This document shows, one piece after another, positions 3,374 to 32,000 of a DNA stretch of 32,000 bases; position 1 is the stretch's first letter; the number at the start of each line of letters is the position of its first letter. The translations under genes and the position numbers were made by a program. Source of the DNA: Nitrospira sp. bin75 (lineage in GTDB: Bacteria; Nitrospirota; Nitrospiria; Nitrospirales; UBA8639); NCBI GenBank assembly GCA_002238765.1, contig MPMZ01000005.1, positions 1 through 32,000 of the forward strand, given 5' to 3'. The notes under the pieces are model-generated. The model did no database searches. It saw only the letters and a list, made by a program, of their open reading frames with translations, and was not told the origin of the DNA.

Positions 3374-3530
3374 ACGATAACGTCATTAAAGCATCTATGT
3401 TTCAATTATATTCCTGTGCAGCATAGAGTTGAGCCTTGCTTCCCGACCGCTCATCCATGATGCCGGCGAGGGCCGATGAACACAGGATACAGTAGATTTT
3501 CTTGACGCGTTGTGTATATTATGAGCATAT

Positions 3531-3839
3531 ATGAAAATCGTCGGCCGTGATCGAATCATCGGCTTTCACTGGGACGAGGGCAACGCTAGGAAGAGCGTCG
3601 ACAAGCACGGCGTCACCCGGTCCGAAACGGAGGAAACGTTTCTGAACGAACCGCTTCTGGTCGTCGAGGACGTTGGCCACAGCCGATCCGAGTTACGGTT
3701 CCATGCTCTCGGTGTCACCAACGCCGGGCGCCGACTACATGTGACCTTTACTTTGCGAGAAGGGAATACCAAAATTCGCGTCATTTCCGCCCGAGACATG
3801 AGCCGTAAGGAGCGAGACCGCTATGAACAGGAAACGTAA
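3531..3839 (+). CDS. brnT: BrnT-family type II toxin (ribonuclease toxin, DUF497)
   Basis: 102-aa ORF with a FHWDEGNARKSVDKHGV.. start typical of BrnT (F-x-WD-x-x-K/N..KHG). It overlaps the downstream antitoxin ORF by 17 nt. Confidence 0.8.
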   Translation: MKIVGRDRIIGFHWDEGNARKSVDKHGVTRSETEETFLNEPLLVVEDVGHSRSELRFHALGVTNAGRRLHVTFTLREGNTKIRVISARDMSRKERDRYEQET

Positions 3840-16047: not shown

Positions 16048-18075
16048 ATGGCCGTGACGAAAGAGAGGTTGACGACCACAACGCTCAGTTTGCCCGAAGA
16101 GCTCATCCTGATGCTCCTCAACGAGGAGAACGGGTACTTTCACCAGGTCCCCGGCTGGGATTTGAACTGCGCTGTCGCCGGCGCAGTACTCGCGGAACTC
16201 TCCCTCCTGTCGCGCATCGACACGGACATGAATTCCCTGTTCCTCGTAGATCAGACCGAAACGGGCGACCCCGCCCTGGACCCCATTCTGAAAGAGATTG
16301 CAAGCGAATCGGTTCAACGGAGCACCCAATTCTGGATTGAACGGCTCGCCCCCCGTGCGGAGTCAGTCATTGATTTGACTCTGGATCGCCTGGTCGGCCA
16401 GAAGATCCTGGAATACCACGACGGCGAATTCTGGACGCTGAATCATACCGGCTGGCAGACGGAACTGTACGGCAACTCCCGGGAAAGCACTGCCGGGCAG
16501 TTCATCAAAACGCGGATCGGCAGGGCTATCTTCATGAACGAGATTCCCGATCCCAGAGACATTATCGTGATTTGCCTCGTCAATACGTGCGACGTCTTTC
16601 GCTTCATCTTCCAGCTCGATGAGGAGTCGGAAGAGCGCATCCAACTCATCTGCAAGATGGACGCGATCGGCCGGTCCATCGCCGATGCAGTCGCCCACAA
16701 CCTCGCCGGCCCCCTGCTTCGACATTCGGCCCTGACCAAGAAGATTCCGGCTGTCTCGCTGAGTAAAGTGTTGTTCAATCCACACGTTCGCAAAGTCAAC
16801 ATTCCGGCCCTCTTTGCGGACCTTGCACACGAATATGGACCGGTGTTTGCGATCCGCCTGCCGTTTGCGAAGCCTATGATCTTCCTGGCCGGACCCCGGA
16901 CAAATCGCTGGGCGCATAAGCGCGGGCGCATGTACCTGAGAGCCAAGGACTATCTTGCCGACTTCGAGAAAGTCTACGGCGCGTGCGGCGTCCTACCTTC
17001 CCTAGACGGCGCCGACCATTTCCGGCTTCGCAAGTCCATGTCAACGGCGTATTCCCGTAGAAGAGTTGAATTGCAACTGGACCAACTCTTTCATCTTGCC
17101 AGAACACATATGGCGCATTGGAAGGTTGGAGACTCGTATACCGCGAGGTCCATGTGCCGGCGAATGATCAACGCACAAATCTCGCCGTTCTACGTCAGCG
17201 TGGATTCTCAGGACATCATCGACGACCTGATGACGTACAAGGAACGGGCGCTCAAAACTCACATCTTGAAGAGCCTGCCCAAATTCATGCTGAACACGCC
17301 GGGCATGAAACGCCGGGCAAAAGCCGTGGACACGTTGCTGGAACGGATCCAGAGTGTCCACACGCCCGCCCAGCGCGCCGGTTGCCCGAGAGACCTTGCG
17401 GATGACTGGCTGAGCCTGCACGCGAGCGATCCGCAGTTCATGCCGGAGTCGAACCTGCGTTTCGCTCTCTCTGCAGCGCTGATTGCCAGCGTGTACCTCG
17501 GCGATGCCTTCAGTTTTGCGCTCTACGCCATGGCGTCACAGCCGGAGATCTACGCCAAGATCCGGAGTGAAGCCGATGCCCTGTTCGACAACGGCGATCC
17601 GAACGGCGAGAACTTCAACCCGTCCGCCATTGACGTCACGCACCGCTTCCTCATGGAATGCCTGCGCATGTACCCGATCGTCCCGATGTCTATTCGAACC
17701 GTGATGAACGCGTGCGTGGTCGAGGACTACGAATTGCCGGTCGGGACAAACATCTACATTGCCCAATCGGCCGCGCATTACATGGACGACGTCTTTCCCG
17801 ACCCGTTCACGTTCGATATCGACCGCTATCTTCCTGCGCGCAATGAGCACCTCAGTCCCGGGTACGCCCCGTACGGGCTGGGTACGCACACGTGTCTCGG
17901 CAACCGGCAGATGGACCTGAAATTGGCCGTCAACGTGCTAATGGTCGCGCATTACTTCACGATCGAGGTAGCCCCCGCGAACTACAAGCTCCGGTTCGAT
18001 CCTCTTCCGTCGATGAAACCGAGCAAGAAGCTGAATTTCCTCATCTCCGAGCGGAGGCGCGAGATTAGCGTCTAG
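16048..18075 (+). CDS. fusion protein: N-terminal GOLPH3/GPP34 (Vps74-like) domain and C-terminal cytochrome P450
   Basis: The N-terminal LSLPEELILMLLNEENGYF...LNCAVAGAVLAELSLLSRID is the GPP34-family signature. The C-terminal ~440 aa is a P450 with ExxR (ECLR), PDPFTFDIDRY, and heme loop YGLGTHTCLG (Cys codon 17893-17895). The start is taken at ATG 16048, preceded by GGGAGA (16034-16039); the ORF-track start is 16006. Confidence 0.85.
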   Translation: MAVTKERLTTTTLSLPEELILMLLNEENGYFHQVPGWDLNCAVAGAVLAELSLLSRIDTDMNSLFLVDQTETGDPALDPILKEIASESVQRSTQFWIERLAPRAESVIDLTLDRLVGQKILEYHDGEFWTLNHTGWQTELYGNSRESTAGQFIKTRIGRAIFMNEIPDPRDIIVICLVNTCDVFRFIFQLDEESEERIQLICKMDAIGRSIADAVAHNLAGPLLRHSALTKKIPAVSLSKVLFNPHVRKVNIPALFADLAHEYGPVFAIRLPFAKPMIFLAGPRTNRWAHKRGRMYLRAKDYLADFEKVYGACGVLPSLDGADHFRLRKSMSTAYSRRRVELQLDQLFHLARTHMAHWKVGDSYTARSMCRRMINAQISPFYVSVDSQDIIDDLMTYKERALKTHILKSLPKFMLNTPGMKRRAKAVDTLLERIQSVHTPAQRAGCPRDLADDWLSLHASDPQFMPESNLRFALSAALIASVYLGDAFSFALYAMASQPEIYAKIRSEADALFDNGDPNGENFNPSAIDVTHRFLMECLRMYPIVPMSIRTVMNACVVEDYELPVGTNIYIAQSAAHYMDDVFPDPFTFDIDRYLPARNEHLSPGYAPYGLGTHTCLGNRQMDLKLAVNVLMVAHYFTIEVAPANYKLRFDPLPSMKPSKKLNFLISERRREISV

Positions 18076-18111
18076 TGCCAAATGGGGCCCGCTGACTACG
18101 AAGTTGACCGC

Positions 18112-19146
18112 CTAAAGGGGTTTGCGAGCCAGGAAACAGTACAACGGCGTGAAGATCCCCGACTTGCCACCCGCGACGTAGGCGTCTGCGGTTCGATCCA
18201 GGAGACGGACGACTTCCGCGGAGCCCTTCGGAAAGAGCCGCAGCACCTCGGCCAGCTTCGATCCCGCGATACAACATCTGCGGCCCCATGGAAGCCTGCA
18301 CACGAGGTTACCCAGTGTCCCGTACCGCGTCTCCATGGGTTGATACCAGGGTGTGGACGGCCCCTCCTTGACGTCGCGGTCCTTCCCCTCGATGACCTGA
18401 AATCCCGCCGCTTCGAGCGCACGATTCACTTCCCCGAACGTCGCGATGTCCTTCAGCGCAATGCCACGCATAAGTTCCCGCTTGATGGCCCGGTGCCGGC
18501 TGTCGTTCGGATCGTACTTGTCCGTCAGACACATGTCCTGACCCCAGAACAGGGCTCCGGGTTTCAATACACGGAATATCTCCGCGAACGCGCGTGGCTT
18601 GTCCGGCGCATGGCACGTTGACTCGATGGCATAACCCCGGTCGAACGTCTCGTCTTTGATGGCGCTCATATCCATGAAGCTGCACGTCTCGTAATCGACC
18701 ATGTGGTCGAGCCCCGCCTCGGCGTTCAACCGTTTCGCATTTGCCAACTGGATGTGATTGATGTTGATCCCGACAACCCGGACACCGGCCTCACGGACGA
18801 CCCGGCGCATCGGGCCGCCGATCCCGCAACCGACATCGACCACCGTCATGCCGGGGTGCAACTCCAGCTTGGCGATCATCAACCGCTGGTGCCGGACTTT
18901 GGAATCCCCCAGACTCTCCTGAGGCGTGAGGGGTGCGAAGTGCAGGGATTCGCCCCAACCGTACACCATGAACTCGCTGCAAAGATCATAGTAGTCTTTT
19001 ACCGTTTGGGTGTGGTCGTATCCGTTCACGCCAGCAGCCTCCGGCGTCGCCCGGTCGATCCAGCCGTCGAAGTGCTCCACGCGACGGGTGACGTCCCCCT
19101 CCCGGTACGCTTCCTTGAGCGCGTGCAGAAGTTTGCCTAGTTGCAT
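18112..19146 (-). CDS. sterol C-24 methyltransferase family protein (ERG6/SMT-like), paralog 1
   Basis: 344-aa ORF with SMT region I variant YYDLCSEFMVYGWGESLHFAP, SAM motif VVDVGCGIGGP, IESTCHAPD, and the Sterol_MT_C-type end GGKSGIFTPLYCFLARKP. RBS GGAAGGAG lies before the ATG. Confidence 0.88.
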   Translation of the reverse strand: MQLGKLLHALKEAYREGDVTRRVEHFDGWIDRATPEAAGVNGYDHTQTVKDYYDLCSEFMVYGWGESLHFAPLTPQESLGDSKVRHQRLMIAKLELHPGMTVVDVGCGIGGPMRRVVREAGVRVVGININHIQLANAKRLNAEAGLDHMVDYETCSFMDMSAIKDETFDRGYAIESTCHAPDKPRAFAEIFRVLKPGALFWGQDMCLTDKYDPNDSRHRAIKRELMRGIALKDIATFGEVNRALEAAGFQVIEGKDRDVKEGPSTPWYQPMETRYGTLGNLVCRLPWGRRCCIAGSKLAEVLRLFPKGSAEVVRLLDRTADAYVAGGKSGIFTPLYCFLARKPL

Positions 19147-19238
19147 GATGAGATTTCTCCTTCCACTTTTGTGTCCACTGCGAAAACCGTGTCAGCAGTG
19201 GAGAGGACGGCGCCACCGGCGGCCTCGTCCATCGGCAC

Positions 19239-19577
19239 TCATTCCGAACCATCCGGATAGAATTGCCTGCAATACCGTCGATACGCGCCAATTTCCCCGT
19301 CCGAGCGACAGAGTAGCGGGCGGGGCCGATGCTGTTTTCGGCCCCAGATGACGACGTCCTGCAACACGTCCCGGCTCTGAGCCGCCATGATGATTTTGTT
19401 CATGAGCCTGGTGCGCAGGCGTAACGGCAGGAAGCGCATGCCCACGATCGGCCGCTTCGGTCTCAGGATTTGACGCACGTGGCTGACCAGCACCAGTTCG
19501 ACGAGTCTGCCGTCGATGGGCGTAGTCAGCACCCACAAACATGTGAAATCAGTCTCATGTCGTCTCCTCTCTGTCAA
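19239..19577 (-). CDS. possible small hypothetical protein between the regulatory module and SMT paralog 1 (start uncertain: TTG 19577 / TTG 19538 / GTG 19532 / ATG further in)
   Basis: It is the only frame in the 19147-19540 gap with protein-like composition and G/C-rich third positions (..PIDGRLVELVLVSHVRQILRPKRPIVGMRFLPLRLRTRLMNKIIMAAQSRDVLQDVVIW..). No family recognised and no clear RBS. Confidence 0.3.
   Translation of the reverse strand: MTERRRHETDFTCLWVLTTPIDGRLVELVLVSHVRQILRPKRPIVGMRFLPLRLRTRLMNKIIMAAQSRDVLQDVVIWGRKQHRPRPLLCRSDGEIGAYRRYCRQFYPDGSE
19526..19558 (-). other. candidate leader uORF, copy 1 (MRLISHVCGC*)
   Basis: The minus strand reads GAGAGGAGAcgacATG AGA CTG ATT TCA CAT GTT TGT GGG TGC TGA. 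The RBS, the ATG and the first six codons are conserved with the copy at 29284-29346. Confidence 0.3.
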
Positions 19578-19703
19578 CTCGTCCGCCTATTGTCTTCCCG
19601 GATCGTGTCCCGAGGCCTGGCGTAAAAGAGTTTTGCCCCACGCGCCTGCCAGCGGGCGGGTAGAAACATTCAGGATGCCACGGCAGATAATTTGAAACGC
19701 ACC

Positions 19704-19732
19704 ACTGTAGCCTACTGAAACCATGGAGTCTA
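19704..19732 (-). promoter_or_regulatory. candidate minus-strand promoter inside module copy 1
   Basis: On the minus strand TAGACT (19727-19732), a 17-nt spacer, then TACAGT (19704-19709). The same geometry occurs in copy 2 (TAGACT-17-TATAAT). Confidence 0.35.
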
Positions 19733-19867
19733 GTATTATGTGTTGCACTCCTATAATTTTATACTTGTCATTCCACAGGTGAAGAGACACCGACGAGGCA
19801 GGGGCTTCCGCCTCGTTGGAACATAAGGCCAAGGAGCTTGGACGTCATGCAGTGCAATAAATGATGC

Positions 19868-19896
19868 TTGCATATCTTGTTTGGCTCAGCTATAAT
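19868..19896 (+). promoter_or_regulatory. candidate plus-strand promoter for SMT paralog 2
   Basis: TTGCAT (19868-19873), a 17-nt spacer, then TATAAT (19891-19896), about 105 nt upstream of the GTG start at 20004. The -10 box is conserved in copy 2. Confidence 0.5.
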
Positions 19897-20003
19897 GTTA
19901 CTTCAGGATTTCTGTCCCGGCAACCCGAGTGTCACGGCCCTGCCCTCCCGAAAACGCGTGACAACGACCAGGACAAATCGTACGAATCCGGAAGAGTAAT
20001 CGA

Positions 20004-21035
20004 GTGAACCCTACGCCCGCCAAACAATCCAATTCTCGTTCCCTCGCGGATCTGGCCCCGGATGAAGTCAAATCCACGGTCGATGGATACACCGCGATCT
20101 ACGACGCCGGCCTGGAGAGCAGGAAAGAGCGTTATCAATCGCTCGTCAATCACTACTACGACTTGGTGACCGATTTTTTCGAATTCGGCTGGGGCCAGTC
20201 TTTTCACTTTGCCCCACGGCAACGAGGCGAGAGCTTCAAGGCGTCCCTGCTCAAGCACGAACAATTTCTCGCCGATCGGTTGTCCCTGAAACCGGGAATG
20301 CAGGTACTTGACGTGGGGTGCGGGGTAGGAGGTCCGATGGGTGCTCTGGCCCGCTATTCCGGGGCCAGCTTTGTCGGTATTAACAATAACGCCTACCAGA
20401 TCAAGCGCGCGAAACTGCACACACGGGATGTCGCATCGTTATGCCGCTTCATCTGCGGCGACTACATGCAGATTCCCGAAGGTGACGACCAGTACGATGC
20501 CGCCTTCGCCATCGAGTCAACGGCCCACGCACCGGACAAAACGGCGGCGTTCCGGGAGATCTTCCGCGTCCTGCGTCCGGGGGCCTGTTTCGCAGGCTAC
20601 GAATGGTGTCTCACCGATGAATACGATCCGGAGAACGCGAAGCACCTGAGGATCAAGAACGATATCATGGTGGGGGGTGGGTTACCGGATATCGCCGTCA
20701 CGTCAAAAATCTGCACCGCATTGCGCACGGCCGGATTCGAACTCCTGGAAGCCTGCGACCGCGCCCCCGAATCGGATCCGGAAATGCCCTGGTACCGCGC
20801 CTTGCAGGGTCGAGACCTCAGCATGGGGAGTATTCCGCGTACCCCTGTCGGCCGCGCCTTGACCAATTTGGTGTTACGGGTTGGGGAGAAATTGCGGCTG
20901 GTTCCGGAGGGCGCCCGCGAGGTCAGCACGCTGTTGAATGCAGGGGCGGACGCGCTGGTCGAAGGCGGCAAATCCGGAATTTTTACTCCGATGTTTTTTT
21001 TCCTGGCACGCAAACCCCGTCGCTCGGAAGACTGA
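20004..21035 (+). CDS. sterol C-24 methyltransferase family protein (ERG6/SMT-like), paralog 2
   Basis: 343-aa ORF with canonical SMT region I YYDLVTDFFEFGWGQSFHFAP, SAM motif VLDVGCGVGGP, IESTAHAPD, and C-terminal GGKSGIFTPMFFFLARKP. It uses a GTG start preceded by GGAAGAG. Confidence 0.9.
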   Translation: MNPTPAKQSNSRSLADLAPDEVKSTVDGYTAIYDAGLESRKERYQSLVNHYYDLVTDFFEFGWGQSFHFAPRQRGESFKASLLKHEQFLADRLSLKPGMQVLDVGCGVGGPMGALARYSGASFVGINNNAYQIKRAKLHTRDVASLCRFICGDYMQIPEGDDQYDAAFAIESTAHAPDKTAAFREIFRVLRPGACFAGYEWCLTDEYDPENAKHLRIKNDIMVGGGLPDIAVTSKICTALRTAGFELLEACDRAPESDPEMPWYRALQGRDLSMGSIPRTPVGRALTNLVLRVGEKLRLVPEGAREVSTLLNAGADALVEGGKSGIFTPMFFFLARKPRRSED

Positions 21036-21124
21036 ATGAAGTCGGTGTTCGACTCCGGGATCCTTCTCGACGTCGCTCATTCCCGTCGCGATCTGCCGAT
21101 GGAGAAGATGAACGCCGTTATCGC

Positions 21125-24100
21125 TCAAGACAAAGAATAGGTGGGAACCGCTTCAGGCAAGGGCGCCGTCGCGTCGGCAGCAGAGACGGCGGAGGCGGTC
21201 AGTTCCAGCCGGGCCCGACGCCGCTGCTCGTAAAGACCGAGCGCGTGCAGGGGAAAATACTGCCGATACAGGACGTAGTCCAACAGCGCCGTACGGAAAA
21301 AGATCCCGGCCATGTCTTGTTTGGGCCATGTCCCATCCGCTTCCTGGGTGTCGAGCAAAAACCGGGCGCCCCGCGAAATCGCGGTCCAGTTCGAATCCCC
21401 CGCCTCGAGGAGCGCAAGCATGGCCCACGAAGTTTGGATGACCTGACTTTCCTCATGCGCGACGTAGCGGCCGGTCAGGCACCCGCTGTGGTGCTCACCC
21501 CATCCCCCGTCTTCCCGCTGGCGGTCCAGTAACCACCGGCAGGCCAGACGTAGGGCCGGATCACCGGGACGGGCCCCGGCGGCCAGCAGCCCCCTGACCC
21601 CGAAGAAGGTGCCGTAGATGAACTGAACGCCCCAGACGCCGCGCCACGACCCATCGCTGGCCTGGTTCCGGCGAAGCCAGGTGTCAGCCCGTGAGACGGC
21701 GCTCATCATCGCCCCATCCGTGATTTGCGGGAAGTGCTCCTGACAGGCGGCGAGCGCCGCGAGACAAGACGCGGTGCACTCGACGTAGGAATGTTCGGTC
21801 GTCGACTCGCCGAACATCTCGGCCGGATTCAGCCACTCAAGAGGAACCACGGAGCGTTGCGCCTCGTAGCTCCCAAAACCGCCATCGCGGTTCTGACCGC
21901 GCAACATGAACCGAACCGCTTCGTCGAGCATTGTCGTGCTCGTGGCCTCGCAGTCCGCGGCGATAATCCCAAGCACCGCTTCCGCGGTGCAGTCGGTCAC
22001 CGGCCAGCCGTGCCATCCCCCTGGAAAACACCAGCCGCCCTTGGGGTCGCTCCGATAGGCCTCGCGAAATCCTTCGAAGCTGGTACCGATTTGTTCCCGG
22101 CGCAGGAAATCGGCTCCGCGTTGGAGGGCGGTTCGAACCCCGTCGAACTCGGGCACCGTCGCCAGCGCCTGCAGGGCGAATCCGGTATCCCACGAGGAGC
22201 TTCTCGCTCCGGTCACTCGCGCTCCACACTCCTCGTCTTCCCAGATCCAGCCGTCCAGCTTCGCGAACGCCTGCCGGCAGTCTGAATCGTTTGGATCACG
22301 CAGCCATAACGCAAGAATGTTCAGGAAGCCGCTGACCGGAGAGATGCTCGTGTGGCTGGTGGTTTGCAGCTCCCATTTGATGTGCCGAATGATCGATTCC
22401 ATACATCGGGCGCGCAGACGTTTGCCGTGGAACCGCTCGACTACCCGCGCCAACCCATATCCGGCACGGAGCCACACGCTGGGTCGCGCGTACAGGTCGG
22501 CGCTTCGCAAGCGATTGCGGCCCGCGGAAAAATTCACGTTGGCAAACCCCTGGGGGAACAACTCCTCTCGTAACGACGCGATCGTGGGCGTGACGGGTGC
22601 TTGAAACCGATGCGGGTAAATCGCCGCCATCGCCATATAGATGAGCCGGGTATGGCAGTACCAATTCGAGGGGTGTAACACGATCCAGCGCGGCAAGATC
22701 CACAACTCCGGGAGAATGGCGTTGACCCCGCGCCAGTCGTAGAGATGGAGAAGCGCCAGCCAGAACTTCCCCCAACTCGGGATATTGAGAACCCCTTCTG
22801 CTTGCATGAATCGACGGGCCGGCTCGATTAACGGATCATCCCGTTCGATACCGAGTAATCTCGCCGCGACGTACACCAGGGTGGTGACAAACAGGTTGGG
22901 TGGTGAGTGCTCGTGTAAACCCCATACGCCTTCCCGGAGACGGGTCCGTTCGAAGGAGCGTAGCACACGCCGGCACCGGCCGGGATCGAGCGGCCGCTCC
23001 ATCATGTGGAGCAATAACACATATTGCGCGGTCAGCATGGGACACCACACCATCTCACCCTCCCAAGCGCCATCCTCACCCTGGAGACGTAACAGACGCG
23101 CGCACGCGCTCTTCAAGGCCGGTTCGGCATAGGGTGACGCAACTTCCCTCGGGCGGATGGACTGGGGGTTACTCACGCTCGACGGCATGGAGACCAATAG
23201 CGCACGAGCCAAGGTGTCCCGAATTCGCTCGTCTTGTGCTCCGCCCTCGCCTCTCGCCTTGCGCAGATGTATGACGCCACGCAGGAGCCACTGGAGACGA
23301 ACGGCGAGCGCCTGAACGACGTCGCAGGCCCTCCGCCAAGCGAACTGGTCGCAGGATCGCGGAATCGCCCCGGCAACCGCCCGAAACACCATCGCGCAAC
23401 CCGCGAAACTCATATGGGATACCGATATGTCTTCACAGGCGAGCAAACGCATGGTCTCGTTGCGGAACGCGGAACTTGCCCGCCAACGCCGGTAGATCGC
23501 GTGTCTGACTGCCACCACCTCGGCCCGGTGATCGGCAAAGGTCTCATAGAGCTCCATGGCAAGGAGCTCGGGAGTGTGGGTCGCTTGGAAACGCTTTGTG
23601 GTGAAGTCGTGAAAGTCCTTGCCTTCGGCCAGCGTCAGCGCATCGCCGAAACCCAGGGGCATTCCCACCGCCGTCAGGGGATGGTAGTGCCCGGCCGCAT
23701 CGCCGATCAGCACTCGATGGGGGCTCCCGTACGTGACGCGCGGACTCAGTTCATTGGCCGCGGCCTGGAATTGCCCCGCCCGTAGCGCTTCGATAAACGC
23801 AGGCCTGAGTGTTTCCGGCAACACACCGGCATACGCGTCCGACAGAAAGCCAATCCGGTCCCAGGGTGTCCAGCCGTCCGATGGGACATCGACGATGACC
23901 CGGACGCAATGATCTCCCAAACGGTACATGAGAATTGGACCCGGTCCACCACACAACACGTGCCCATAACCCTCCAGCGGTAAACGCACCCCTCTCAATG
24001 TGACCCCCACCATCCGCGAGCAGGTCTTCGGTTTGATCGATAAGCCCAAGGATCGACGCACGATTGAGGCCCGGCCGTCGGCGCCGACAATCCGCGCGGC

Positions 24101-24550: not shown

Positions 24551-25956
24551 TGGACAATGCTCGCTTGCGAGCGGCGGCGATAGCGGACCCGGCACGGTGC
24601 CTTGGGACCCGTCACCCAACTCCCGTAATTCGGGGCGGGAAACGCCGTGTCGAGATGAAAATCGAAGCGATCGAGCAGCACGGTCCAGATCGCTTTCAGT
24701 TGCAGGTAAGCAAAAAGTTTCCCCATACACACGTGTTTGCCGCCGCCGAAACCGATCAGGGCGTACTGATGTTGCTTGTCCTCGCAAGCGGGAGGGTCAA
24801 AACGCTCCGGAGAGAACCGTTCCGGGTCGGCAAACACGTGGGGCAGCCGGTGAGAGACTGCAGGGGACACCATGGCCAGGGTGCCGGCAGGCACGAGATG
24901 GTCTCCGTAACGCACGGGTTTCAGCACCTTGCGGATCAGCATGATCAACGGCGGGTGCATCCGCTCACACTCACGGACGGCGTGTTCCAGCGCCACTTGT
25001 CGTTTGAGACTAGCAAGGGTCATGGCTCCTTCCTCACGGTAAACGTCTTGCATCTCGTCTCTGACCCGCGCCAGGTATGATGGTGCCCTCACGAGTTCCA
25101 GACCGGTCCAGGTTGCGAGCACCGCGCTGGTGTGTTGGCCCGCGAACAAGACCGTCAGCAAGATCCCAGAAATTTCGTCGTCGCTCAAAGCACGGCCATC
25201 CTTGTACCGGGCGTGCATGAGTGCCTGCATGAAATCATCGGGACAGGCCCCGGAAAACCGGCGTTCCGCCATGATCCGGCTAAAGAGTTCGACCACGTTT
25301 CGCCGGGCCCGGTCGCGGCTTCGATGCGCCGCGGTCGGAAGTCTGGGGAGAAAAAATCCCAAGGTGTTGATGCCTTTTTGCAGATCGTGATACGCCTCGG
25401 CAAAACCCGAGTCCACCTGATCCCGGACTTCCTGTCCAATGAGGCAACGACTGGCGATCTTGACGGTGAGTTCGTTCAACGCGACCGGCAGATCGGCTTC
25501 ACCCTCCTCGCCGAGGGCGTCGGCGAACCAGCTCGTCTCCTCGAACATGATGCGCGCAAACCTGCTCATCGCGGCCTCGCGGAGCGCCGGAAACAAGAAT
25601 CCCAGTTGCTCGTCCATGAGTTCGGGGGGGGCATCGTACGCCACGCCGCGTCCGAAGATGGGTACCGTGAATTGATAGACGGCTTTGGCGTTCAGTTGAT
25701 CCTCGGGCGCCCTGAAGTAAACTTCGTGGGCTTCGGGTCCGGTGAAGAGAACAAACTCTCGGGGACCGAGCCGGAACCGGAAGAGATCGCCCTGCTCGCG
25801 CCAGCCGCGGCTCAACATCGAGACCGGATCCTTGAGAAAATCCGGCAGATGACCGATCAACGGCCATCCACCCCCAAGCTCGGGAACGGCTTTTGCGACG
25901 CGCGGCGAGAACTGCGCCGAACGCAGGGTTGCCACACTGTGAGACCGATCTTCCAC
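24547..25956 (-). CDS. cyp51: sterol 14-alpha-demethylase, cytochrome P450 family 51
   Basis: CYP51 signatures: B'-helix YQFTVPIFGRGVAYDAP, I-helix LFAGQHTSAV, and heme loop FGGGKHVCMG. The preferred start is GTG 25954-25956, with GGAGAG 8 nt upstream overlapping the preceding gene's TGA. The alternative ATG at 26022 would overlap the upstream gene by 55 nt. Confidence 0.9.
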   Translation of the reverse strand: MEDRSHSVATLRSAQFSPRVAKAVPELGGGWPLIGHLPDFLKDPVSMLSRGWREQGDLFRFRLGPREFVLFTGPEAHEVYFRAPEDQLNAKAVYQFTVPIFGRGVAYDAPPELMDEQLGFLFPALREAAMSRFARIMFEETSWFADALGEEGEADLPVALNELTVKIASRCLIGQEVRDQVDSGFAEAYHDLQKGINTLGFFLPRLPTAAHRSRDRARRNVVELFSRIMAERRFSGACPDDFMQALMHARYKDGRALSDDEISGILLTVLFAGQHTSAVLATWTGLELVRAPSYLARVRDEMQDVYREEGAMTLASLKRQVALEHAVRECERMHPPLIMLIRKVLKPVRYGDHLVPAGTLAMVSPAVSHRLPHVFADPERFSPERFDPPACEDKQHQYALIGFGGGKHVCMGKLFAYLQLKAIWTVLLDRFDFHLDTAFPAPNYGSWVTGPKAPCRVRYRRRSQASIVQ

Positions 25957-25967
25957 CCCTGCTCTCC

Positions 25968-27062
25968 TCAATAGACAAACGGCAGCATCGAAAAGCGCAC
26001 TCGCTGCGTGTAGCGTTCCCACAATTCGCCATACTTGGCTCGGCAGCGGTGCTCATCACGTCTCGAGCGATGCCACAACAAACCCGCCAGCCACACGGGT
26101 AACAGGTAGGGTACCCAGGATGCGAATCCGGTGGTCAGGGTGAACGCGAGGTAGATGCAGATTTCACCGGTATAGTTGAGATGCCGTCCAATGCCCCAAA
26201 AGCCGGAGACCAGCAGGCGCCCGTCCATGGACCGGGCGGGTTGTCCCCAAATCATGATGTCGGGGTCACGCTTGAAGCGGTGCTTTTGCTGGTTGGCGCC
26301 GCGGAAGACCCAGAAGCCGAACAACAGGACGATCGCAGCCGCGGCAATGGGAGACAGCGGTGCCGATGCGTGGATCAGCCACCAGCCGGGGAGGCAGTAG
26401 AAAAACGGCACCAGCACGTAGTCTCCCCAAATCAACATCCATCCGAAGCGCTCACTGACGATGTCCCAAGTGTGGATCATGCCGTATTCGAACTGGAAGT
26501 AATTGAGCACGTACAGGAAGGTGAAGATCTGATAGAGCGCCATGGCCAAGGTCAGCCCGCCGTAGGTTTCGTACTGCGCGACGGCAAACGAGGCGTTGAG
26601 CAGCGCCAGGCCGATGAGGGAAGGGCGGTAACTGAAAAGCTTCAAATCCACCCCGAACCAGGTGGGATTGAGTTCCACGCCAAAGAAGAAACCTTTCCAC
26701 GGTCCCGGTGGTGCATCCCCCAACTCGGCTCTTCGCCAATACAGCCAGCCGGACAAGGCGAATGCGAATACGTTGGTCACCACGAACAACGCGGCGAAGT
26801 GGGTATGCAGCACGGAAAGAGAAAACCACCCGAAGACCTCGGCGAGACAGGCCACGATCACGGTCATCAGGAACAAGGCAAGGCCGTTGAGCTTGTAGGT
26901 GTGCGTTTTTCCGCCGATCTCCGGCCCCGTCACCCGCCGTCCGGACAGGAACGCCGAACCCAGAAACAACACGCCGACAAACACCGACACCATGACCGTC
27001 GCATCGAGCACCGTGCCGGCCGACAGCGTGGACAACGGGAAGTGCAGCTCAGACGCCGGCAT
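25968..27062 (-). CDS. ERG4/ERG24-family sterol reductase (most likely C-14 reductase; C-24(28) or C-7 reductase not excluded)
   Basis: 364-aa polytopic membrane ORF with family motifs GANQQKHRFK, GFWGIGRHLNYTGE and HRSRRDEHRCRAKYGELWERY. It lies immediately upstream of cyp51. Confidence 0.85.
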   Translation of the reverse strand: MPASELHFPLSTLSAGTVLDATVMVSVFVGVLFLGSAFLSGRRVTGPEIGGKTHTYKLNGLALFLMTVIVACLAEVFGWFSLSVLHTHFAALFVVTNVFAFALSGWLYWRRAELGDAPPGPWKGFFFGVELNPTWFGVDLKLFSYRPSLIGLALLNASFAVAQYETYGGLTLAMALYQIFTFLYVLNYFQFEYGMIHTWDIVSERFGWMLIWGDYVLVPFFYCLPGWWLIHASAPLSPIAAAAIVLLFGFWVFRGANQQKHRFKRDPDIMIWGQPARSMDGRLLVSGFWGIGRHLNYTGEICIYLAFTLTTGFASWVPYLLPVWLAGLLWHRSRRDEHRCRAKYGELWERYTQRVRFSMLPFVY

Positions 27063-28176
27063 CGCCGTTCTCCGTCCCCCGCACCATGTACTCCCGCCAC
27101 TTGCGCACGGTCACGTTTTGAAAAGCCCGCACCGCCGGATTGTACTCGATGGGGGGAGCGTCCCAATGTTGCTCGTAACCCTGCTGCTCCGCTTCGACCG
27201 CAACGCCGTCCTGGGCGAGTAAAGGGCCGATGAGTACACGGTTCGAGATCTTCAACACCGCGGTCATGGCGAAACGGGGAATACGAACAGGCAGCAAGGG
27301 CACCTTCAGCGACTTGAAGTAAAACAGGAAAAACGCCCGGGTAGTACGCTCATCGATCGGCAGGACGAAAAGCCAGTGTTTGATCGCGTCATCGGTGTTC
27401 GACCACTGGTAGGGGTATTGATAGCACAGTTCCATATGAGTGGTATCGAGCCGGTGGTGATCGACAAACAGTCCGGAGATGCGCCCGCGCCCGACCCGCG
27501 TATCGTAGGCCACGTGCACGTCGTCGCCGACGGTCTCGCAACGGGTGAGAGTGGCGTCTTCTTCGAAGGGACGGTATTGACGGTGCAGGTGGGCGTGGGT
27601 GAAGTCGCTCACGTTATCGATCACCATCGAGTGGTGGGCCGACCAGGTGAAAACCAGCGGCTCGCAGGCCCACCGCTCGGGTCCCTCGAGTTCCGGGATG
27701 TCCGGGATCCGGCGCAACTCCGCCCGCTCCGGTTCCCCGGGGAACAACCAGACCAGACCGTATCGGACCTTCACGGGATAGGTTCTGAGCGGGAGCTTCG
27801 GGAGACCCCGTCCGGAGAGGTCGTGGGGGATCGCGACACAGCGTCCGTTTCCATCATACTGCCAGCCATGGTAGGCGCACACGAGCCGGCAGCCTTGCAC
27901 CTCGCCCAGGGAGAGTTTGAGCTGGCGATGCGCACAGCGATTCTCGATAGCGTGAAACGAGCCGTCCTTTCCCCGGAACAGCGCAATGGAACGTTTCCAG
28001 AAAATGACCTCGACCACCGTCCCCGGTTTGACGCGGTGCACTTCCTCAACCGCGTACCAATAATCCGGGTCCATCCCCGCGGCACGGGCTTGCTGGCGCA
28101 AGCTGCCGGCTTCCTCGAAGCCGGGTGGCGCACCCGGCGCCGGAATCACGTTGAGCCTTCTTTTCGCGTTATCCAT
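27049..28176 (-). CDS. sdmA: Rieske [2Fe-2S] non-heme-iron oxygenase, SdmA-like (bacterial sterol C-4 methyl oxidase candidate)
   Basis: Rieske motif CAHRQLKLS..(x)..CAYHGW and a mononuclear-iron region DNVSDFTHAHLH. It is paired with an SDR gene as in the Methylococcus capsulatus sdmAB arrangement. The symbol is assigned by context and family, not by a search. Confidence 0.7.
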   Translation of the reverse strand: MDNAKRRLNVIPAPGAPPGFEEAGSLRQQARAAGMDPDYWYAVEEVHRVKPGTVVEVIFWKRSIALFRGKDGSFHAIENRCAHRQLKLSLGEVQGCRLVCAYHGWQYDGNGRCVAIPHDLSGRGLPKLPLRTYPVKVRYGLVWLFPGEPERAELRRIPDIPELEGPERWACEPLVFTWSAHHSMVIDNVSDFTHAHLHRQYRPFEEDATLTRCETVGDDVHVAYDTRVGRGRISGLFVDHHRLDTTHMELCYQYPYQWSNTDDAIKHWLFVLPIDERTTRAFFLFYFKSLKVPLLPVRIPRFAMTAVLKISNRVLIGPLLAQDGVAVEAEQQGYEQHWDAPPIEYNPAVRAFQNVTVRKWREYMVRGTENGDAGV

Positions 28177-29287
28177 AGGCCTGGCTCGGAGAAAAATTGT
28201 CCACGGGTGCCGCGGCGGTCACGCACGGACGTTTCGCGAGCGGATTCGTGATCGCGTTGCGATGGTAGTGAAAGGCGTAAGCCTCACGAACCGCAGCACG
28301 GATACTGGTTGGCTGATAGCCGAGTTCCCGTTTCGCTTTGCTAGTGTCGGCGTGACGGCGCTTTCGTAACAGGCGGATGGCGCCGGGGGTGAACCGCTGG
28401 GGAAAGCTCGGGTGAAACCGGCTCAGATAAAAGCTCGCCACTTCCGAAAAGCCGAGCATCAGGCGGGTCGGAATCCGCCGGCACGGTCGCGGGAGTCCCG
28501 AGACTTCCTCGAACAGATCCAAGATCTCGGAGATGGTTTTGTACTCGCTGCTGAAGATGTACTTTTCGCCCGATCGTCCTTTGTGCATACACAACAGGTG
28601 TCCTTCGACAATGTCCCTCGCCGCGACAAACTCGAACCCCCCGTCGACGTAGGCGCGGATCTTGCGGTTGGTGTAGTCGCACAAGGTCCGTCCCAATCGC
28701 GAGGGGAAAAAATCACCGCCCCCGATCACCGCACAACACGTGGCGACCACGACGTCCTGTCCCTTCGCCGCGGCCTTCCAGCACTCGTGCTCGACGAGCG
28801 CTTTGCTGCGCTCGTAGGGCATCGTGCGCTCCATGGGATAGAACTGCATCGTCTCGTCGCTGGGAGAGGACGGATTATCCAGATCGTACCCGACCGCACT
28901 GAAAGAGCCCGTCACCACCACCCGGCCGGCCCCCGCCTCCCGCGCAGCCTGCAGCACGTGGCGGGTACCGAGCACGTTGCACTCGAACACTTCCCGCCGA
29001 TGGGCGCGGTTGCCTTCGATGGTCGAGACCTTGGCCGCGACGTGATAGACGCCTTGACAGCCTTCGAGCGCGCGCCTGGTGGCATTCAAGTCTCGAATGT
29101 CACCGAACGAGCGTTCAACATCAAGGCCTTCCAACGCCTCGTTGTTGTCCTCGTGTCTCAGCAACACCCGGACCCGGACGCCATCGTCGAGCAGCCGGCG
29201 CACAAGATTGGCGCCCACGTGCCCGGCCGATCCGGTAACGAAAACAGGCGGCGGAGAACCGGCGAATGCGCCCGATCCTGAGGTCAT
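28169..29287 (-). CDS. sdmB: NAD(P)-dependent SDR (3-beta-HSD / epimerase family), SdmB-like (C-4 decarboxylase/ketoreductase candidate)
   Basis: Rossmann VFVTGSAGHVGANLVRRLL and catalytic YERSK (YxxxK). It overlaps the sdmA-like start by 8 nt and is the first gene of the five-gene unit. RBS GGAAGGA lies before the ATG. Confidence 0.7.
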   Translation of the reverse strand: MTSGSGAFAGSPPPVFVTGSAGHVGANLVRRLLDDGVRVRVLLRHEDNNEALEGLDVERSFGDIRDLNATRRALEGCQGVYHVAAKVSTIEGNRAHRREVFECNVLGTRHVLQAAREAGAGRVVVTGSFSAVGYDLDNPSSPSDETMQFYPMERTMPYERSKALVEHECWKAAAKGQDVVVATCCAVIGGGDFFPSRLGRTLCDYTNRKIRAYVDGGFEFVAARDIVEGHLLCMHKGRSGEKYIFSSEYKTISEILDLFEEVSGLPRPCRRIPTRLMLGFSEVASFYLSRFHPSFPQRFTPGAIRLLRKRRHADTSKAKRELGYQPTSIRAAVREAYAFHYHRNAITNPLAKRPCVTAAAPVDNFSPSQAYG

Positions 29288-29346
29288 CTAGTATCCTTCC
29301 GAAGTCTTGCCGTGGGAGCGCTTGCGCGATGTGAAATTAGTCTCAT
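29284..29346 (-). other. candidate leader uORF, copy 2 (MRLISHRASAPTARLRKDTR*), stop overlapping the sdmB-like ATG
   Basis: The minus strand reads GAGAAGAGAttccATG AGA CTA ATT TCA CAT ... AGA TGA, where the TGA (29284-29286) overlaps the sdmB ATG (29285-29287) as ATGA. The first six codons match copy 1 except for one synonymous CTG/CTA change. Confidence 0.3.
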
Positions 29347-29496
29347 GGAATCTCTTCTCTGTCAACTCGCTCACTAACTGTCTTCCCGGACCGTGTCCCA
29401 AGGGGTGTGGTAGGAGCGTTTTGCTCCACGAGGCTGCCGCCGGGCAAGAGCGGGACGGTGAGGGTGCCCATTCTTTTTAACAGCCTTGATTTACGT

Positions 29497-29525
29497 ATTA
29501 TAGCCCACTGAATGTTTTGAGTCTA
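29497..29525 (-). promoter_or_regulatory. candidate minus-strand promoter inside module copy 2
   Basis: On the minus strand TAGACT (29520-29525), a 17-nt spacer, then TATAAT (29497-29502). Confidence 0.4.
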
Positions 29526-29663
29526 GTATTATTTATTGCACTCTTTTGATACTCAGATCGACCTTCTGCCCGCTGAGGCTCACATCAACGAAGCGGGGCC
29601 GTGCCGCCTCGTCGAGTCGTGAGGCCTGGTAGCGGGCCATGCGGTGAGTGCAATGCATGATAC

Positions 29664-29692
29664 TGGAATCTCTTATTTCATTAAGCTATAAT
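29664..29692 (+). promoter_or_regulatory. candidate plus-strand promoter for the RND transporter
   Basis: TGGAAT (29664-29669), a 17-nt spacer, then TATAAT (29687-29692). It aligns position-for-position with the copy-1 promoter. Confidence 0.4.
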
Positions 29693-29842
29693 GCGCCCTC
29701 AGGCTTCCTGCTGCGGCACCCTGAGTGTCCGCGCCCTCCCCTACGGAAGCCACATGGCGATGATCGAAATGCACCCCCAGCACACAACCGCCAAGGGAAC
29801 CAGCCGGGTCGCCGCGGCTGCACGCCGCCGGACAGCGAAGGC

Positions 29843-32000
29843 ATGAGCTCCGCCACTCTGGACCGCTACACCGCGTTCATGTTGCGCCGCCGATGGCTGG
29901 TCCTCGCGTCGGCCGTGGCAGTCATGCTGGCTCTGACGGCCGGCGTCCAATTCATCAACATCTCCAACGACTGGCGTGACATGTTGGACGAGGACAATCC
30001 TCAACTCGTGGCATTCGACGCCTTGGAGGATACCTACACGGCCACCAATGCGGCGCTGGTCGCGGTCGCGCCCAAGGGCGGGTCGGTCTTCACCCGCGAG
30101 GCGCTCGGCGCCGTCGAGGAGTTGACCGAGGCCGCGTGGCGCGTGCCCTCGTCCACCCGGGTCGACTCCTTGACCAACTATAGCCACACCGAGTCGGTCG
30201 AGGACGATTTGAACGTCGAACGGCTCGTGGACGACGCGGGATCGCTGAGCGATGACGACCTCGCGCGGATCAAGGAAATTGCGTTAAACGAGCCCAGTGT
30301 CGCGGGCCGTCTCGTTTCCCACGACGGGCGCGTTGCCGGACTGGTCATCAGTTTCACCTTGCCCGAGCATTCGGACGCCGCGGAGATCCGGATTCTCAAC
30401 TATGTCCGCGGCCTCCTGGAAGAGGCCAGGGCGGCGCATCCGGACATCGCCTATCACGTCACCGGCAATGTCTTCGTGAACCGAGTCCTGACGAAGGCGG
30501 CCCAGGACGATATGGGAATTCTCGCGCCCGTCGCGTTCCTCGTCATCGTGTCCGTCGCCGCCATTCTGCTGCGCTCCCTGTTCGGCACGCTGTCCCTCGT
30601 CGCGGTGCTCCTTTTCGTCGTCGGCTCGACCATGGGCGTCATCGGCTGGACCGGTTTGGTGCTCAACGCCGCCAACTCCGGCGTTCCCCTCATCATCATG
30701 ACGCTCGCCATCGCGCACTCGGTCCACGTCGTCGAGAAGATCGTGTCCGGCATGAGCCGGGGTCTGGATAGGGACACGGCGGTCGTCGAATCGTTGCGCG
30801 ACAATGCCTGGCCGGTCTTCCTGACGACGGCCACGACGATGATCGGGTTCCTCAGCATGAACGCCTCGGACTCTCCGCCCTTCCGGGTCCTCGGTAATCT
30901 TGTGGCGTTCGGGATGTTCTGCGCCTACGTGTATTCCATGACGCTTCTTCCGGCGCTGCTGTTGGTCCTGCCGTTGCGCGCGAGTCCCGTACGCGCCGGG
31001 CGTTCCAATTTCTTCGATCGCCTCGGCGCCTTCGTCGTCGCGCGCCGCGGGCTCCTGCTCTGGTCCATGGCCGCCGTCGCGATTACCCTGATAGCCGGCG
31101 TGCCCCGCGTCGAGCTGACGGACAACTGGACGACGCATTTGGATGAACGTTACGAGTTTCGGCGCGATACGGACTTCGTCATCGAGAACCTGTCCGGCGT
31201 AGAGACGCTGGAGTACAGCCTGAGAGCCGGACGCGAAGGCGGCATCACCGATCCCGGCTATCTGCGCAAGGCCGACGCTTTGGCCGAATGGTACCGGGCC
31301 CAGCCGGAAGTGGCTCACGTCCGGGCGTTTTCAGACATCATGAAGCGCCTCAACAAGAACATGCACGGCGACGACCAGGCCTTTTACCGGCTGCCCGAAA
31401 ACCCCGAGCTTGCCGCGCAGTACCTGCTGCTCTACGAACTTTCGGTTCCCTTCGGCATGGACCTCAACAACCGAATGGACATCGGCAAAACCTCGACGCG
31501 GATGACCGTCACGCTCCACAGACTGAAGTCCGAGGAGATGCGTGAGCTCGAAGTGCGCGGGCAGGAGTGGCTCCGCGCCAACGCGCCCGACCTCGCGTCC
31601 GAGGCATCGGGGTACAGCCTCATCTTCGCCCATCTGGCCATACGGAACACCATGAGCATGTTGTGGGGCACGATCACGGGTATGGTCCTCATTTCGCTGC
31701 TCCTGATCGCGATTTTCAGAAGCGTACGCCTCGGCCTCATCAGCCTCGTGCCCAACCTCATCCCCTCGTTTATGGCTTTCGGCGTTTGGGGCTATCTGTA
31801 CAGCGAGGTGGGGCCCGCCGGCTCGCTCGTGACCGCGATCGCCTTCGGCACCGTCGTCGATGACACGATTCACCTCATGAGCAAGTATCTGAAGGCGCGT
31901 CGCGAAGGACTTTCCGCGTCCGAGGCGGTATGCTACGCTTTTCGTTCGGTCGGTCAGGCGTTGTTCACCACAACCATGATGCTGGTGCTGGGCTTCCTGG
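29843..32000 (+). CDS. RND-superfamily MMPL/HpnN-type transporter (BstA-like sterol transporter candidate), C-terminus beyond window
   Basis: Own translation from ATG 29843 gives MSSATLDRYTAFMLRRRWLVLASAVAVMLALTAG..., then a periplasmic loop, a TM bundle (..LIIMTLAIAHSVHVV.., ..TTATTMIGFLSMN..), a second loop, and a second bundle with FGTVVDDTIHLMSKY. The frame is open to 32000. It is absent from the ORF track because it is open-ended. Confidence 0.85.
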   Translation, partial: MSSATLDRYTAFMLRRRWLVLASAVAVMLALTAGVQFINISNDWRDMLDEDNPQLVAFDALEDTYTATNAALVAVAPKGGSVFTREALGAVEELTEAAWRVPSSTRVDSLTNYSHTESVEDDLNVERLVDDAGSLSDDDLARIKEIALNEPSVAGRLVSHDGRVAGLVISFTLPEHSDAAEIRILNYVRGLLEEARAAHPDIAYHVTGNVFVNRVLTKAAQDDMGILAPVAFLVIVSVAAILLRSLFGTLSLVAVLLFVVGSTMGVIGWTGLVLNAANSGVPLIIMTLAIAHSVHVVEKIVSGMSRGLDRDTAVVESLRDNAWPVFLTTATTMIGFLSMNASDSPPFRVLGNLVAFGMFCAYVYSMTLLPALLLVLPLRASPVRAGRSNFFDRLGAFVVARRGLLLWSMAAVAITLIAGVPRVELTDNWTTHLDERYEFRRDTDFVIENLSGVETLEYSLRAGREGGITDPGYLRKADALAEWYRAQPEVAHVRAFSDIMKRLNKNMHGDDQAFYRLPENPELAAQYLLLYELSVPFGMDLNNRMDIGKTSTRMTVTLHRLKSEEMRELEVRGQEWLRANAPDLASEASGYSLIFAHLAIRNTMSMLWGTITGMVLISLLLIAIFRSVRLGLISLVPNLIPSFMAFGVWGYLYSEVGPAGSLVTAIAFGTVVDDTIHLMSKYLKARREGLSASEAVCYAFRSVGQALFTTTMMLVLGFL

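Follow-up and report, generated by a model that had tools for sequence, protein, structure and literature searches.

The 32,000-nucleotide stretch analysed in this work (hereafter the window; Nitrospira sp. bin75, contig MPMZ01000005.1, positions 1 to 32,000) carries a nine-gene sterol locus. We consider it very probable that the window is a chromosome segment of a Nitrospirales symbiont of Aplysina aerophoba, in which an operon of the reductive tricarboxylic acid (rTCA) cycle of the ATP-citrate lyase (ACL) type lies beside a horizontally shared sterol cluster, and that one of the two sterol methyltransferases (SMTs) of this cluster, SMT2, is an enzyme whose activity in vitro has been published. 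The locus had been described before, and its key enzyme has been characterised biochemically.

Genes were identified from a listing of open reading frames (ORFs) and from Pfam and NCBIfam profile searches, and the window was compared with retrieved homologous or identical contigs and genomes (loci L001 and L050-L144). All nine genes that an earlier note on this DNA had placed between positions 16048 and 32000 were found, at coordinates either exact or a few bases off, and the peptide motifs that it quoted were all recovered by string search (VTDCTAE, AGQHTS, YQFTVPIFGRGVAYD, FGGGKHVCMG, LNYTGE and RDEHRCRAKYG). The set covers, as had been claimed, epoxidation, cyclisation, C-14 demethylation and reduction, C-4 demethylation and C-24 alkylation. 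Five of the genes follow each other on the minus strand in the order sdmB (first), sdmA, ERG24, CYP51 and the fused squalene monooxygenase-oxidosqualene cyclase (SQMO-OSC). Overlaps of 8 bp (sdmB/sdmA), 14 bp (sdmA/ERG24) and 4 bp (CYP51/SQMO-OSC) leave a single gap, of 11 bp, and the start codon of SQMO-OSC overlaps the stop codon of CYP51 (ATGA). Such overlapping or nearly abutting genes point to the layout of a bacterial operon.

Brown et al. (2023; Nat Commun 14:1859, PMC10070321) described an A. aerophoba contig, JGIcombinedJ30088_10000835, of 32,339 bp and 23 genes, with two SMTs as genes 9 and 11, ERG1 and ERG7 combined in gene 12, and ERG11, ERG24, sdmA and sdmB as genes 13-16. The gene order of the window equals that of published genes 9, 11, 12, 13, 14, 15 and 16: in both, an SMT is followed by one intervening gene, a second SMT, the monooxygenase-cyclase as a single gene, ERG11, ERG24, sdmA and sdmB, and no difference was detectable between the proteins. 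By default BLASTP, SMT2 is 42.357% identical to yeast ERG6 (133/314; published, 42.36%) and SMT1 35.159% (122/347; published, 35.16%). The ERG6 sequence used here was accepted on 28 of 28 residue-number agreements with the 2025 preprint of Brown and Welander; with ERG6 as query the value for SMT2 was 42.99%, and 42.357% was obtained once query and subject had been swapped. According to this preprint, G249 of yeast corresponds to G225 of the enzyme termed Ap_sym_SMT. In SMT2, the middle glycine of VGGGLP is residue 225, in agreement with the published numbering. The exact SMT2 sequence is recorded as MetaClust 891.fasta_scaffold00835_9, and the same sequence is found in JGI/IMG. Unfortunately, JGIcombinedJ30088_10000835 was not returned when JGI metagenome contigs were searched with SMT2, the best matches being relatives about 80% identical, and the identity with the window is thus established indirectly. 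Altogether, these data argue that the window and the published contig carry the same locus. Judging from L001, a contig identical to the window, the size and gene count of the published contig would fit a span from about sucC or frdA to just past the isocitrate dehydrogenase gene. By comparison, the window reaches further upstream (M24 peptidase, NERD and BrnT genes) and ends within the MMPL gene. The host is given as 'yet-unknown' in the two papers, which mention neither the P450, nor the transporter, nor the rTCA genes (PMC10070321; 2025 preprint). Two SMTs of a coral-reef Nitrospira metagenome-assembled genome (MAG) were also assayed by Brown et al. (PMC10070321).

The core of the locus had been recognised even earlier. 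Kelly et al. (2022; Microbiome 10:164, PMC9531527) surveyed 537 Ircinia MAGs and reported 'clusters of steroid genes' of the ERG24-CYP51-LSS type in 115 of them. Ten phyla were represented, Nitrospiria being included, a Nitrospirota MAG from A. aerophoba also had such a cluster, and the cluster genes were found to be under purifying selection (omega 0.13-0.26). The core order and the fused lanosterol synthase (LSS) gene are the same in these clusters and in the window, their 'DFR' corresponding to SdmB and their 'hypothetical' protein to SdmA. On the other hand, no SdmAB function was assigned and no enzyme tested in that study, and the window locus also has two SMTs and GPP34-P450 and MMPL flanks. 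The statement of the earlier note that such a combination of steps was undemonstrated in this lineage is thus overtaken by the clusters of Kelly et al. and by the locus and SMT assays of Brown et al. In our comparison, sponge MAGs of at least ten bacterial orders (loci L050-L129) share the core sterol proteins at 70-90% identity, among them Binatia, Acidimicrobiales, Alpha- and Gammaproteobacteria, Opitutales, Bryobacterales and Rhodothermales. The order around the core varies: SMT2 can lie upstream of sdmB (L051, L070) or be duplicated (L074), and MMPL can be present in two copies (L092). High identity across orders and variable gene order together indicate a probable recent horizontal spread of the cluster with frequent rearrangement, in agreement with Kelly et al. 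(PMC9531527).

Pfam supports the assignment of both SMT1 and SMT2 to the ERG6-type methyltransferases. SMT2 matches Sterol_MT_C with 80 bits, keeps all 25 checked residues listed for functional SMTs in the 2025 preprint, and carries the residues linked to propylation, F59 (F81 in yeast), F61 (F83) and G225 (G249). In the same preprint, the propylating signature consists of Gly249 together with Phe81 and/or Phe83, and is described as necessary but not sufficient. In vitro, Ap_sym_SMT adds one, two or three carbons, up to a 24-isopropyl group, converting desmosterol successively to 24-methyl and 24-ethyl products and to 24S-24-isopropylcholesta-5,25-dienol (PMC10070321). Because the window matches the published locus, SMT2 would be this propylating enzyme of Brown et al. 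(gene 11, '1 of 2', Ap_sym_SMT).

The fused SQMO-OSC protein, of 1141 aa as called in public assemblies, has about 500 bacterial homologs that are likewise fused. Its SQMO part matches human SQLE in the PDB with 92 bits. As the earlier note had proposed, the cyclase part belongs to the oxidosqualene type and not to the squalene-hopene type, as judged from its motif and from profile and PDB scores. VTDCTAE begins at residue 851 and aligns with V453-S-D455-CTAE of human LSS. The cyclase scores 438 bits over 625 residues against human LSS, compared with 176 bits against the squalene-hopene cyclase of A. acidocaldarius, and 720.5 bits against the NCBIfam model TIGR03463 (osq_cycl), compared with 264.6 bits against the hopene cyclase model TIGR01507. 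A hopene cyclase, the alternative set beforehand as a possible refutation, thus failed on both comparisons. The string 'DxDDTA' was not matched in the fusion, but it was searched as literal letters, so that this result alone does not exclude the motif.

The next two enzymes of the operon are unambiguous. For CYP51, the best PDB match is the Methylococcus capsulatus CYP51 (341 bits), and of the 57 PDB matches with E no higher than 1e-30, 56 are CYP51s or belong to that P450 family. Its signature motifs are found at residues 94 (Y-x-x-F-x-x-P-x-F-G-x-x-V-x-Y-D), 272 (AGQHTS) and 403 (the heme-ligand cysteine), the string search places both YQFTVPIFGRGVAYD and FGGGKHVCMG in this protein, and there is no ferredoxin fusion. 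The reductase matches Pfam ERG4_ERG24 over its full length (237.5 bits) and the delta(14)-sterol reductase 4QUV (241 bits), and has the C-terminal NADPH-binding motifs, with LNYTGE and RDEHRCRAKYG present. Both calls of the earlier note are borne out. For the Rieske oxygenase and the short-chain dehydrogenase/reductase (SDR), which it had compared to the SdmA/SdmB pair, the picture is more nuanced. The best NCBIfam models are NF052579 (4-beta-methylsterol monooxygenase SdmA, 409.9 bits) and NF052578 (SdmB, 316.2 bits), which outscore all other NCBIfam families by a wide margin; the two genes are adjacent in the operon, and the Rieske cysteine and histidine ligands are present in the motifs CAHRQ and CAYHGW. 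However, both scores stay under the equivalog cutoffs of 600 bits. Published identities for the proteins of this locus are 47.06% between SdmA and MCA1016, 45.02% between SdmB and MCA1017, and 50-52% between SdmB and the SdmB and SdmC of E. salina (PMC10070321).

Family membership and operon structure suggest the following route. The SQMO part would epoxidise squalene to 2,3-oxidosqualene, which the OSC part would cyclise to a lanosterol-type tetracycle (protosterol). CYP51 would then take off the 14-methyl group and the ERG24-type reductase saturate the delta-14 bond, SdmA and SdmB would strip one or both C-4 methyls, and SMT2 would carry out as many as three alkylations at C-24 of the delta-24 side chain. 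Apart from SMT2, we infer this pathway, the order of its steps, the cyclase product and production in vivo. The same families serve for epoxidation, cyclisation, C-14 demethylation and Rieske/SDR C-4 demethylation in the pathway of M. capsulatus. The latter, however, has a CYP51-ferredoxin fusion, whereas the window encodes an unfused CYP51, a fused SQMO-OSC and SMTs; SdmA and SdmB under their equivalog cutoffs and a transporter of the MMPL/HAE3 type also set the window apart.

Several observations weigh against our interpretation. The window contains no gene for squalene synthase, ferredoxin or ferredoxin reductase, so that substrate and electrons must come from elsewhere. SdmA and SdmB fall short of their equivalog cutoffs, as described above. 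Sterol production by Nitrospira in vivo is deduced from the genes. In addition, 24-isopropyl sterols are unreported among the native sterols of A. aerophoba (PMC10070321), and the output of the enzyme in vivo may thus be small or different. A last point concerns the cyclase, whose specificity positions (human LSS numbering) are A381, H449 and V453. At positions 381/449/453, the canonical triad is T/C/V in lanosterol synthase and Y/H/I in cycloartenol synthase. The A/H/V triad of the window is mixed and matches neither, so that the product is unreadable from sequence and could be lanosterol, parkeol or cycloartenol.

One may also wonder whether the cluster mainly modifies sponge-derived sterols, through side-chain alkylation and nuclear tailoring and with no de novo synthesis, in the way proposed for the SMTs of Chlamydiae. 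SMT2 accepts the animal-type substrates desmosterol and 24-methylenecholesterol in vitro (PMC10070321), squalene synthase is absent from the window, the accessory module described below includes RND/MMPL transporters and a lipid-binding-type domain, and mixed host-symbiont pathways were deemed possible by Brown et al. (PMC10070321). We nevertheless hold such a use of the cluster to be unlikely. Intact SQMO-OSC, CYP51, ERG24 and SdmAB genes are kept in one operon with 70-90% identity across phyla and under the purifying selection reported for the clusters of Kelly et al. (omega as above; PMC9531527), and only early intermediates of de novo synthesis are substrates of these enzymes. Moreover, an ERG9-type squalene synthase is encoded elsewhere in a related Nitrospira MAG (PMC10070321).

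The mixed residues A381, H449 and V453 and the score of the cyclase under the curated TIGR03463 cutoff (720.5 against 851 bits) could also be taken to mean that its product is not a sterol (for instance a triterpenol of the arborane or parkeol type) and that the end product is not a conventional 4-desmethyl sterol. One bacterial OSC making arborinols has been described. However, CYP51, the delta-14 reductase and SdmAB need a 14-methyl, 4,4-dimethyl substrate of the lanosterol, cycloartenol or parkeol type, and the OSCs of the demosponge-metagenome clusters of Brown et al. fall in bacterial OSC Group 1 (PMC10070321), which makes such a product highly improbable in our view.

The rTCA genes lie on the other side of the locus. 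The ACL is of the two-subunit bacterial type, with ATP-grasp and Citrate_bind domains in AclB and CoA-binding, CoA-ligase and citrate-synthase-like domains in AclA (Pfam), and the NCBI protein name is 'ATP citrate lyase [Nitrospira sp.]'. Of the flanking aclAB-acn-frdAB-sucCD block described in the earlier note, aclBA, acn and sucCD stand, while 'frdAB' is not a canonical FrdAB (quinol:fumarate reductase): its flavoprotein is of the soluble TfrA/NadB-like type (365 bits to TfrA, under the cutoff). The proposed host, an ACL-type rTCA member of the Nitrospirota, is confirmed by the 94-97% identity of aclA and aclB to Nitrospirales MAG loci that also bear the sterol cluster, and by the name 'Nitrospira sp.' given by NCBI to the cluster-mate proteins.

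A scan for the fusion protein in species-representative genomes gave 80 loci, almost all from sponge-associated MAGs. The sterol cluster adjoins the PilX-like pseudopilin gene and aclB in six other Nitrospirales genomes (L052, L061, L065, L074, L092 and L097), aclA being also reached in L052, L074 and L097; three of the six records are labelled 'chromosome: 1', two of which reach only aclB in the fetched 10 kb. The PilX-like gene (426 aa, 14533-15813 in public assemblies) is 77-84% identical at the same position in all six. Furthermore, two ENA assemblies of this strain, independent of each other, have an identical acn-aclA-aclB-PilX-GPP34P450-SMT1 junction. The GC content at third codon positions (GC3) is 0.70-0.79 for the sterol genes and 0.70-0.77 for the rTCA genes, and the tetranucleotide correlation is 0.85 between the two blocks and 0.91 within them. 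The earlier note had itself raised a chimeric join or eukaryotic contamination at ~14.5-16 kb, which is refuted by the synteny in six genomes, the two ENA assemblies and the matching GC3. That the rTCA-sterol join is an assembly chimera, or that the sterol genes are sponge contamination, can hardly be maintained: GC does rise slightly across the boundary, from ~0.58 to ~0.62, and the sterol-locus enzymes resemble eukaryotic ones, but both ideas are contradicted by the recurrence of the junction, by the agreement in GC3 and tetranucleotide usage, by intron-free genes with stop/start overlaps, by a bacterial-type SQMO-OSC fusion with its bacterial homologs and by a cyclase that is a diverged and not a near-identical homolog of human LSS. 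The junction is genuine and lies in the genome of a Nitrospirales bacterium. Since the rTCA genes lie on the same contig, the published 'yet-unknown' host can be assigned to the Nitrospirales, an assignment that is possibly new.

The gene announced as an extra P450 does contain a P450 but is really a fusion of GPP34 and P450, with the domain architecture of the 'GPP34_L' proteins of sponge symbionts. In the 689-aa ORF, Pfam detects GPP34 at residues 29-230 (4.5e-27) and p450 at residues 437-674 (5.8e-34), with the heme-binding motif YGLGTHTCLG at residue 609. The P450 part is divergent, the nearest solved P450s being CYP51 and CYP120 at only ~1e-17. More than 2000 homologs of the fusion were found, and the best 120 all combine GPP34 and P450 with at least 75% identity. 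The GPP34 domain gives a weak and partial alignment with GOLPH3 (3KN1; E 0.03). Among the GOLPH3 residues that bind phosphatidylinositol 4-phosphate (PI4P), namely W81, R90, R171 and R174, R90 is aligned with Ala and W81 with Pro, with a Trp two residues later, and R171 and R174 have no aligned counterpart. GPP34_L was reported to be exclusive to sponge symbionts and present in 85.7% of sponge Nitrospirota genomes, and was proposed to be a secreted effector that binds PI4P and blocks phagosome maturation (PMC11706023; Microbiome 13:4, 2025). Sterols, squalene, cyclases and MMPL are unmentioned in that paper, which gives the effector role without a sterol context, whereas the window fusion, identical in domain architecture, lies in or beside a sterol cluster.

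Among the 80 loci, a GPP34-P450 gene lies within 10 kb of the OSC gene in 18, at least six lineages outside the Nitrospirales being represented; the same holds for an MMPL gene in 17, and both are present in 12. We also took the reverse sample, that is, six GPP34_L genes from other large genomes (L139-L144). In all six, GPP34_L lies beside a Rieske/KshA_C oxygenase gene. A resistance-nodulation-division (RND) or MMPL pump is directly adjacent in five, the sixth having a disrupted ACR_tran gene ~3.5 kb away, and an amine-oxidase-like flavoprotein gene is directly adjacent in three and two genes away in a fourth. No OSC gene was found within 10 kb in any of the six, which counts against our interpretation on this point: a strict linkage of GPP34_L with OSC was rejected, and the link of the module with sterols is thus facultative. 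GPP34_L therefore belongs to a conserved module of its own, made of P450, KshA-type Rieske, flavoprotein and RND genes, which flanks the sterol core in Nitrospirales and is possibly a new observation. Given this context, the need of a P450 for cytoplasmic redox partners and an N-terminus that is unremarkable by eye, we take GPP34_L to be more likely an enzyme of lipid oxidation than a secreted effector.

The transporter gene, truncated by the end of the window, encodes 762 aa in L001. It had been described as an MMPL/HpnN-type pump, of which only the MMPL part is retained: Pfam gives MMPL with 114 bits, with borderline Patched and sterol-sensing-domain matches, the best NCBIfam family is HAE3 (154 bits), and the PDB offers only weak MmpL4/5 matches. 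An HpnN identity was rejected (TIGR03480, 52.8 bits for a cutoff of 751.85; NF052374, 26 bits for a cutoff of 1100). Like HpnN, the protein would be an inner-membrane lipid transporter of the RND superfamily encoded beside triterpenoid genes, but it fits HAE3/MMPL better and its PDB matches include no HpnN structure. Past this gene, L001 (199-4838) encodes an amine-oxidase-like flavoprotein, a 246-aa tetratricopeptide-repeat (TPR) protein and a monomeric isocitrate dehydrogenase. Near OSC genes in different phyla, the flavoprotein keeps 76-96% identity. Among solved structures, LkcE and the P. acnes fatty-acid isomerase come closest to it; an HpnE identity was rejected (26 bits for a cutoff of 283). 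The TPR protein is kept near the sterol cluster in several phyla; a BstC-like or other known identity was rejected, the matches being generic TPR matches only. This second module (GPP34-P450, a decayed KshA-type Rieske, MMPL, flavoprotein and TPR protein) would tailor and/or export a lipid, plausibly a sterol.

SMT1 behaves differently from SMT2. Its S-adenosylmethionine-binding (SAM-binding) motifs are intact, but the sterol-binding Region I is remodelled (S78, M81 and L89, yeast numbering) and position 249 is Ile. It fails the 25-residue set of functional SMTs through T78S and F89L, M81 and I249 being further differences. These substitutions are kept in orthologs of 66-98% identity in five other loci (L050, L058, L065, L077 and L129) from Nitrospirales, Binatia, Opitutales and Gammaproteobacteria. 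Conserved substitutions and intact SAM motifs indicate that SMT1 represents a maintained, divergent subfamily and not a decaying copy, which is possibly a new finding. SMT1 is gene 9 ('2 of 2') among the enzymes assayed by Brown et al. (PMC10070321). The outcome for '2 of 2' was not found in the text or supplements of that paper, where the result is given as a figure only; SMT1 was probably inactive on delta-24 sterols in these assays. [quoted passage not shown] One could thus imagine that SMT1 is not a redundant C-24 enzyme and instead methylates the delta-25(27) bond of (epi)codisterol, leading to sterols of the aplysterol or 26-methylstigmastane type, while the GPP34-P450 module serves in sterol tailoring and export and not as a phagosome effector. 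We give this combined proposal little chance of being right; as a C-26 methyltransferase, SMT1 is, speculatively, a testable candidate.

SMT1-type genes usually adjoin a Rieske/KshA_C gene. This gene is intact beside them in L077, L056, L063, L065, L070 and L129 and frameshifted in L050. In the 857-bp gap between SMT1 and SMT2 of the window, some 96 codons at the 3' end are all that remains of a 358-aa Rieske/KshA_C gene: Pfam detects KshA_C on a 112-aa ORF, and tblastn with the full-length Rieske proteins of L077 and L056 matches the window only at their residues 254-349. The window gene is, from these comparisons, evidently a truncated and decayed remnant, possibly a new finding. Copy A of a direct repeat of ~430 bp starts exactly at the end of the remnant, upstream of SMT2, and is 67-79% identical to copy B, in the divergent sdmB/MMPL intergenic region. 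In place of the missing part of the Rieske gene stands a copy of this intergenic region, duplicated before SMT2. Copy A contains a TATAAT-like box, and copy B one sigma-70-like site on the minus strand. The element is conserved at the same place, before sterol-locus transcription units, in the Nitrospirales L050, L074 and L092. An Rfam search of the repeated region gave no match, and hence no known riboswitch or RNA.

A bacterium with the capacity to form 14- and 4-demethylated sterols carrying one to three alkylations at C-24 makes it doubtful that 24-isopropylcholestane and other alkylated steranes can serve as biomarkers of eukaryotes or sponges alone. The earlier note was right about this relevance, which is already the main message of Brown et al. 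(PMC10070321), who made the case with assays on these same proteins. To this, the present analysis adds the host, an ACL-rTCA member of the Nitrospirales, and the conserved chromosomal site of the cluster beside aclBA. It also adds the context of the GPP34_L module, which argues for a role in lipid oxidation and export over that of a secreted effector, and the SMT1 subfamily as a concrete candidate for the missing C-26 methyltransferase.

Table 1. Features of the window, in order of position.
Feature	Coordinates	Strand	Basis
sucD	4179-5051	-	Pfam, NCBIfam
sucC	5108-6295	-	Pfam, NCBIfam
TfrA/FrdA-like flavoprotein	6505-8085	-	Pfam, NCBIfam
Fe-S protein, 239 aa	8103-8822	-	weak family matches
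aconitase	8976-11225	-	start from the 749-aa gene called in L130
aclA	11297-13123	-	Pfam, NCBIfam
aclB	13175-14371	-	Pfam, NCBIfam
PilX_N/GspK-like pseudopilin gene, between ACL operon and sterol locus	14533-15864	-	Pfam PilX_N, NCBIfam GspK
GPP34 + P450 fusion	16048-18075	+	Pfam
SMT1, divergent ERG6-family methyltransferase	18112-19146	-	Pfam Sterol_MT_C
Rieske/KshA_C oxygenase gene remnant, truncated	19251-19538	-	Pfam KshA_C, tblastn
Copy A of the ~430-bp repeated intergenic region	19541-19967	+	repeat families D1-D3, alignment
SMT2, ERG6-type sterol C-24 methyltransferase	20004-21035	+	Pfam, ERG6 identity
Squalene monooxygenase-oxidosqualene cyclase, single ORF	21125-24550	-	Pfam SE, SQHop_cyclase_N and _C
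CYP51 sterol 14-alpha-demethylase	24547-25956	-	PDB matches, motifs
Delta-14 sterol reductase (ERG24/TM7SF2 type)	25968-27062	-	Pfam ERG4_ERG24, PDB 4QUV
SdmA-like Rieske oxygenase	27049-28176	-	Pfam Rieske and VanA_C
SdmB-like SDR	28169-29287	-	Pfam Epimerase, 3Beta_HSD
Copy B of the ~430-bp intergenic region, divergent sdmB/MMPL promoter region	29329-29763	+	repeat search, alignment
MMPL/HAE3-family RND transporter, runs past window end	29843-32000	+	Pfam MMPL, NCBIfam HAE3

Finally, we considered a tRNA-flanked island, for which no tRNAs were found in the window. A low-GC island is present at 2306-3839, with a GC content of 0.40-0.47 against ~0.59 elsewhere. It contains a gene for a NERD-domain nuclease-like protein (2306-3373, minus strand) and one for a BrnT-type toxin (3531-3839, plus strand), and probably represents an insertion, mobile or defence-related, next to the rTCA operon.

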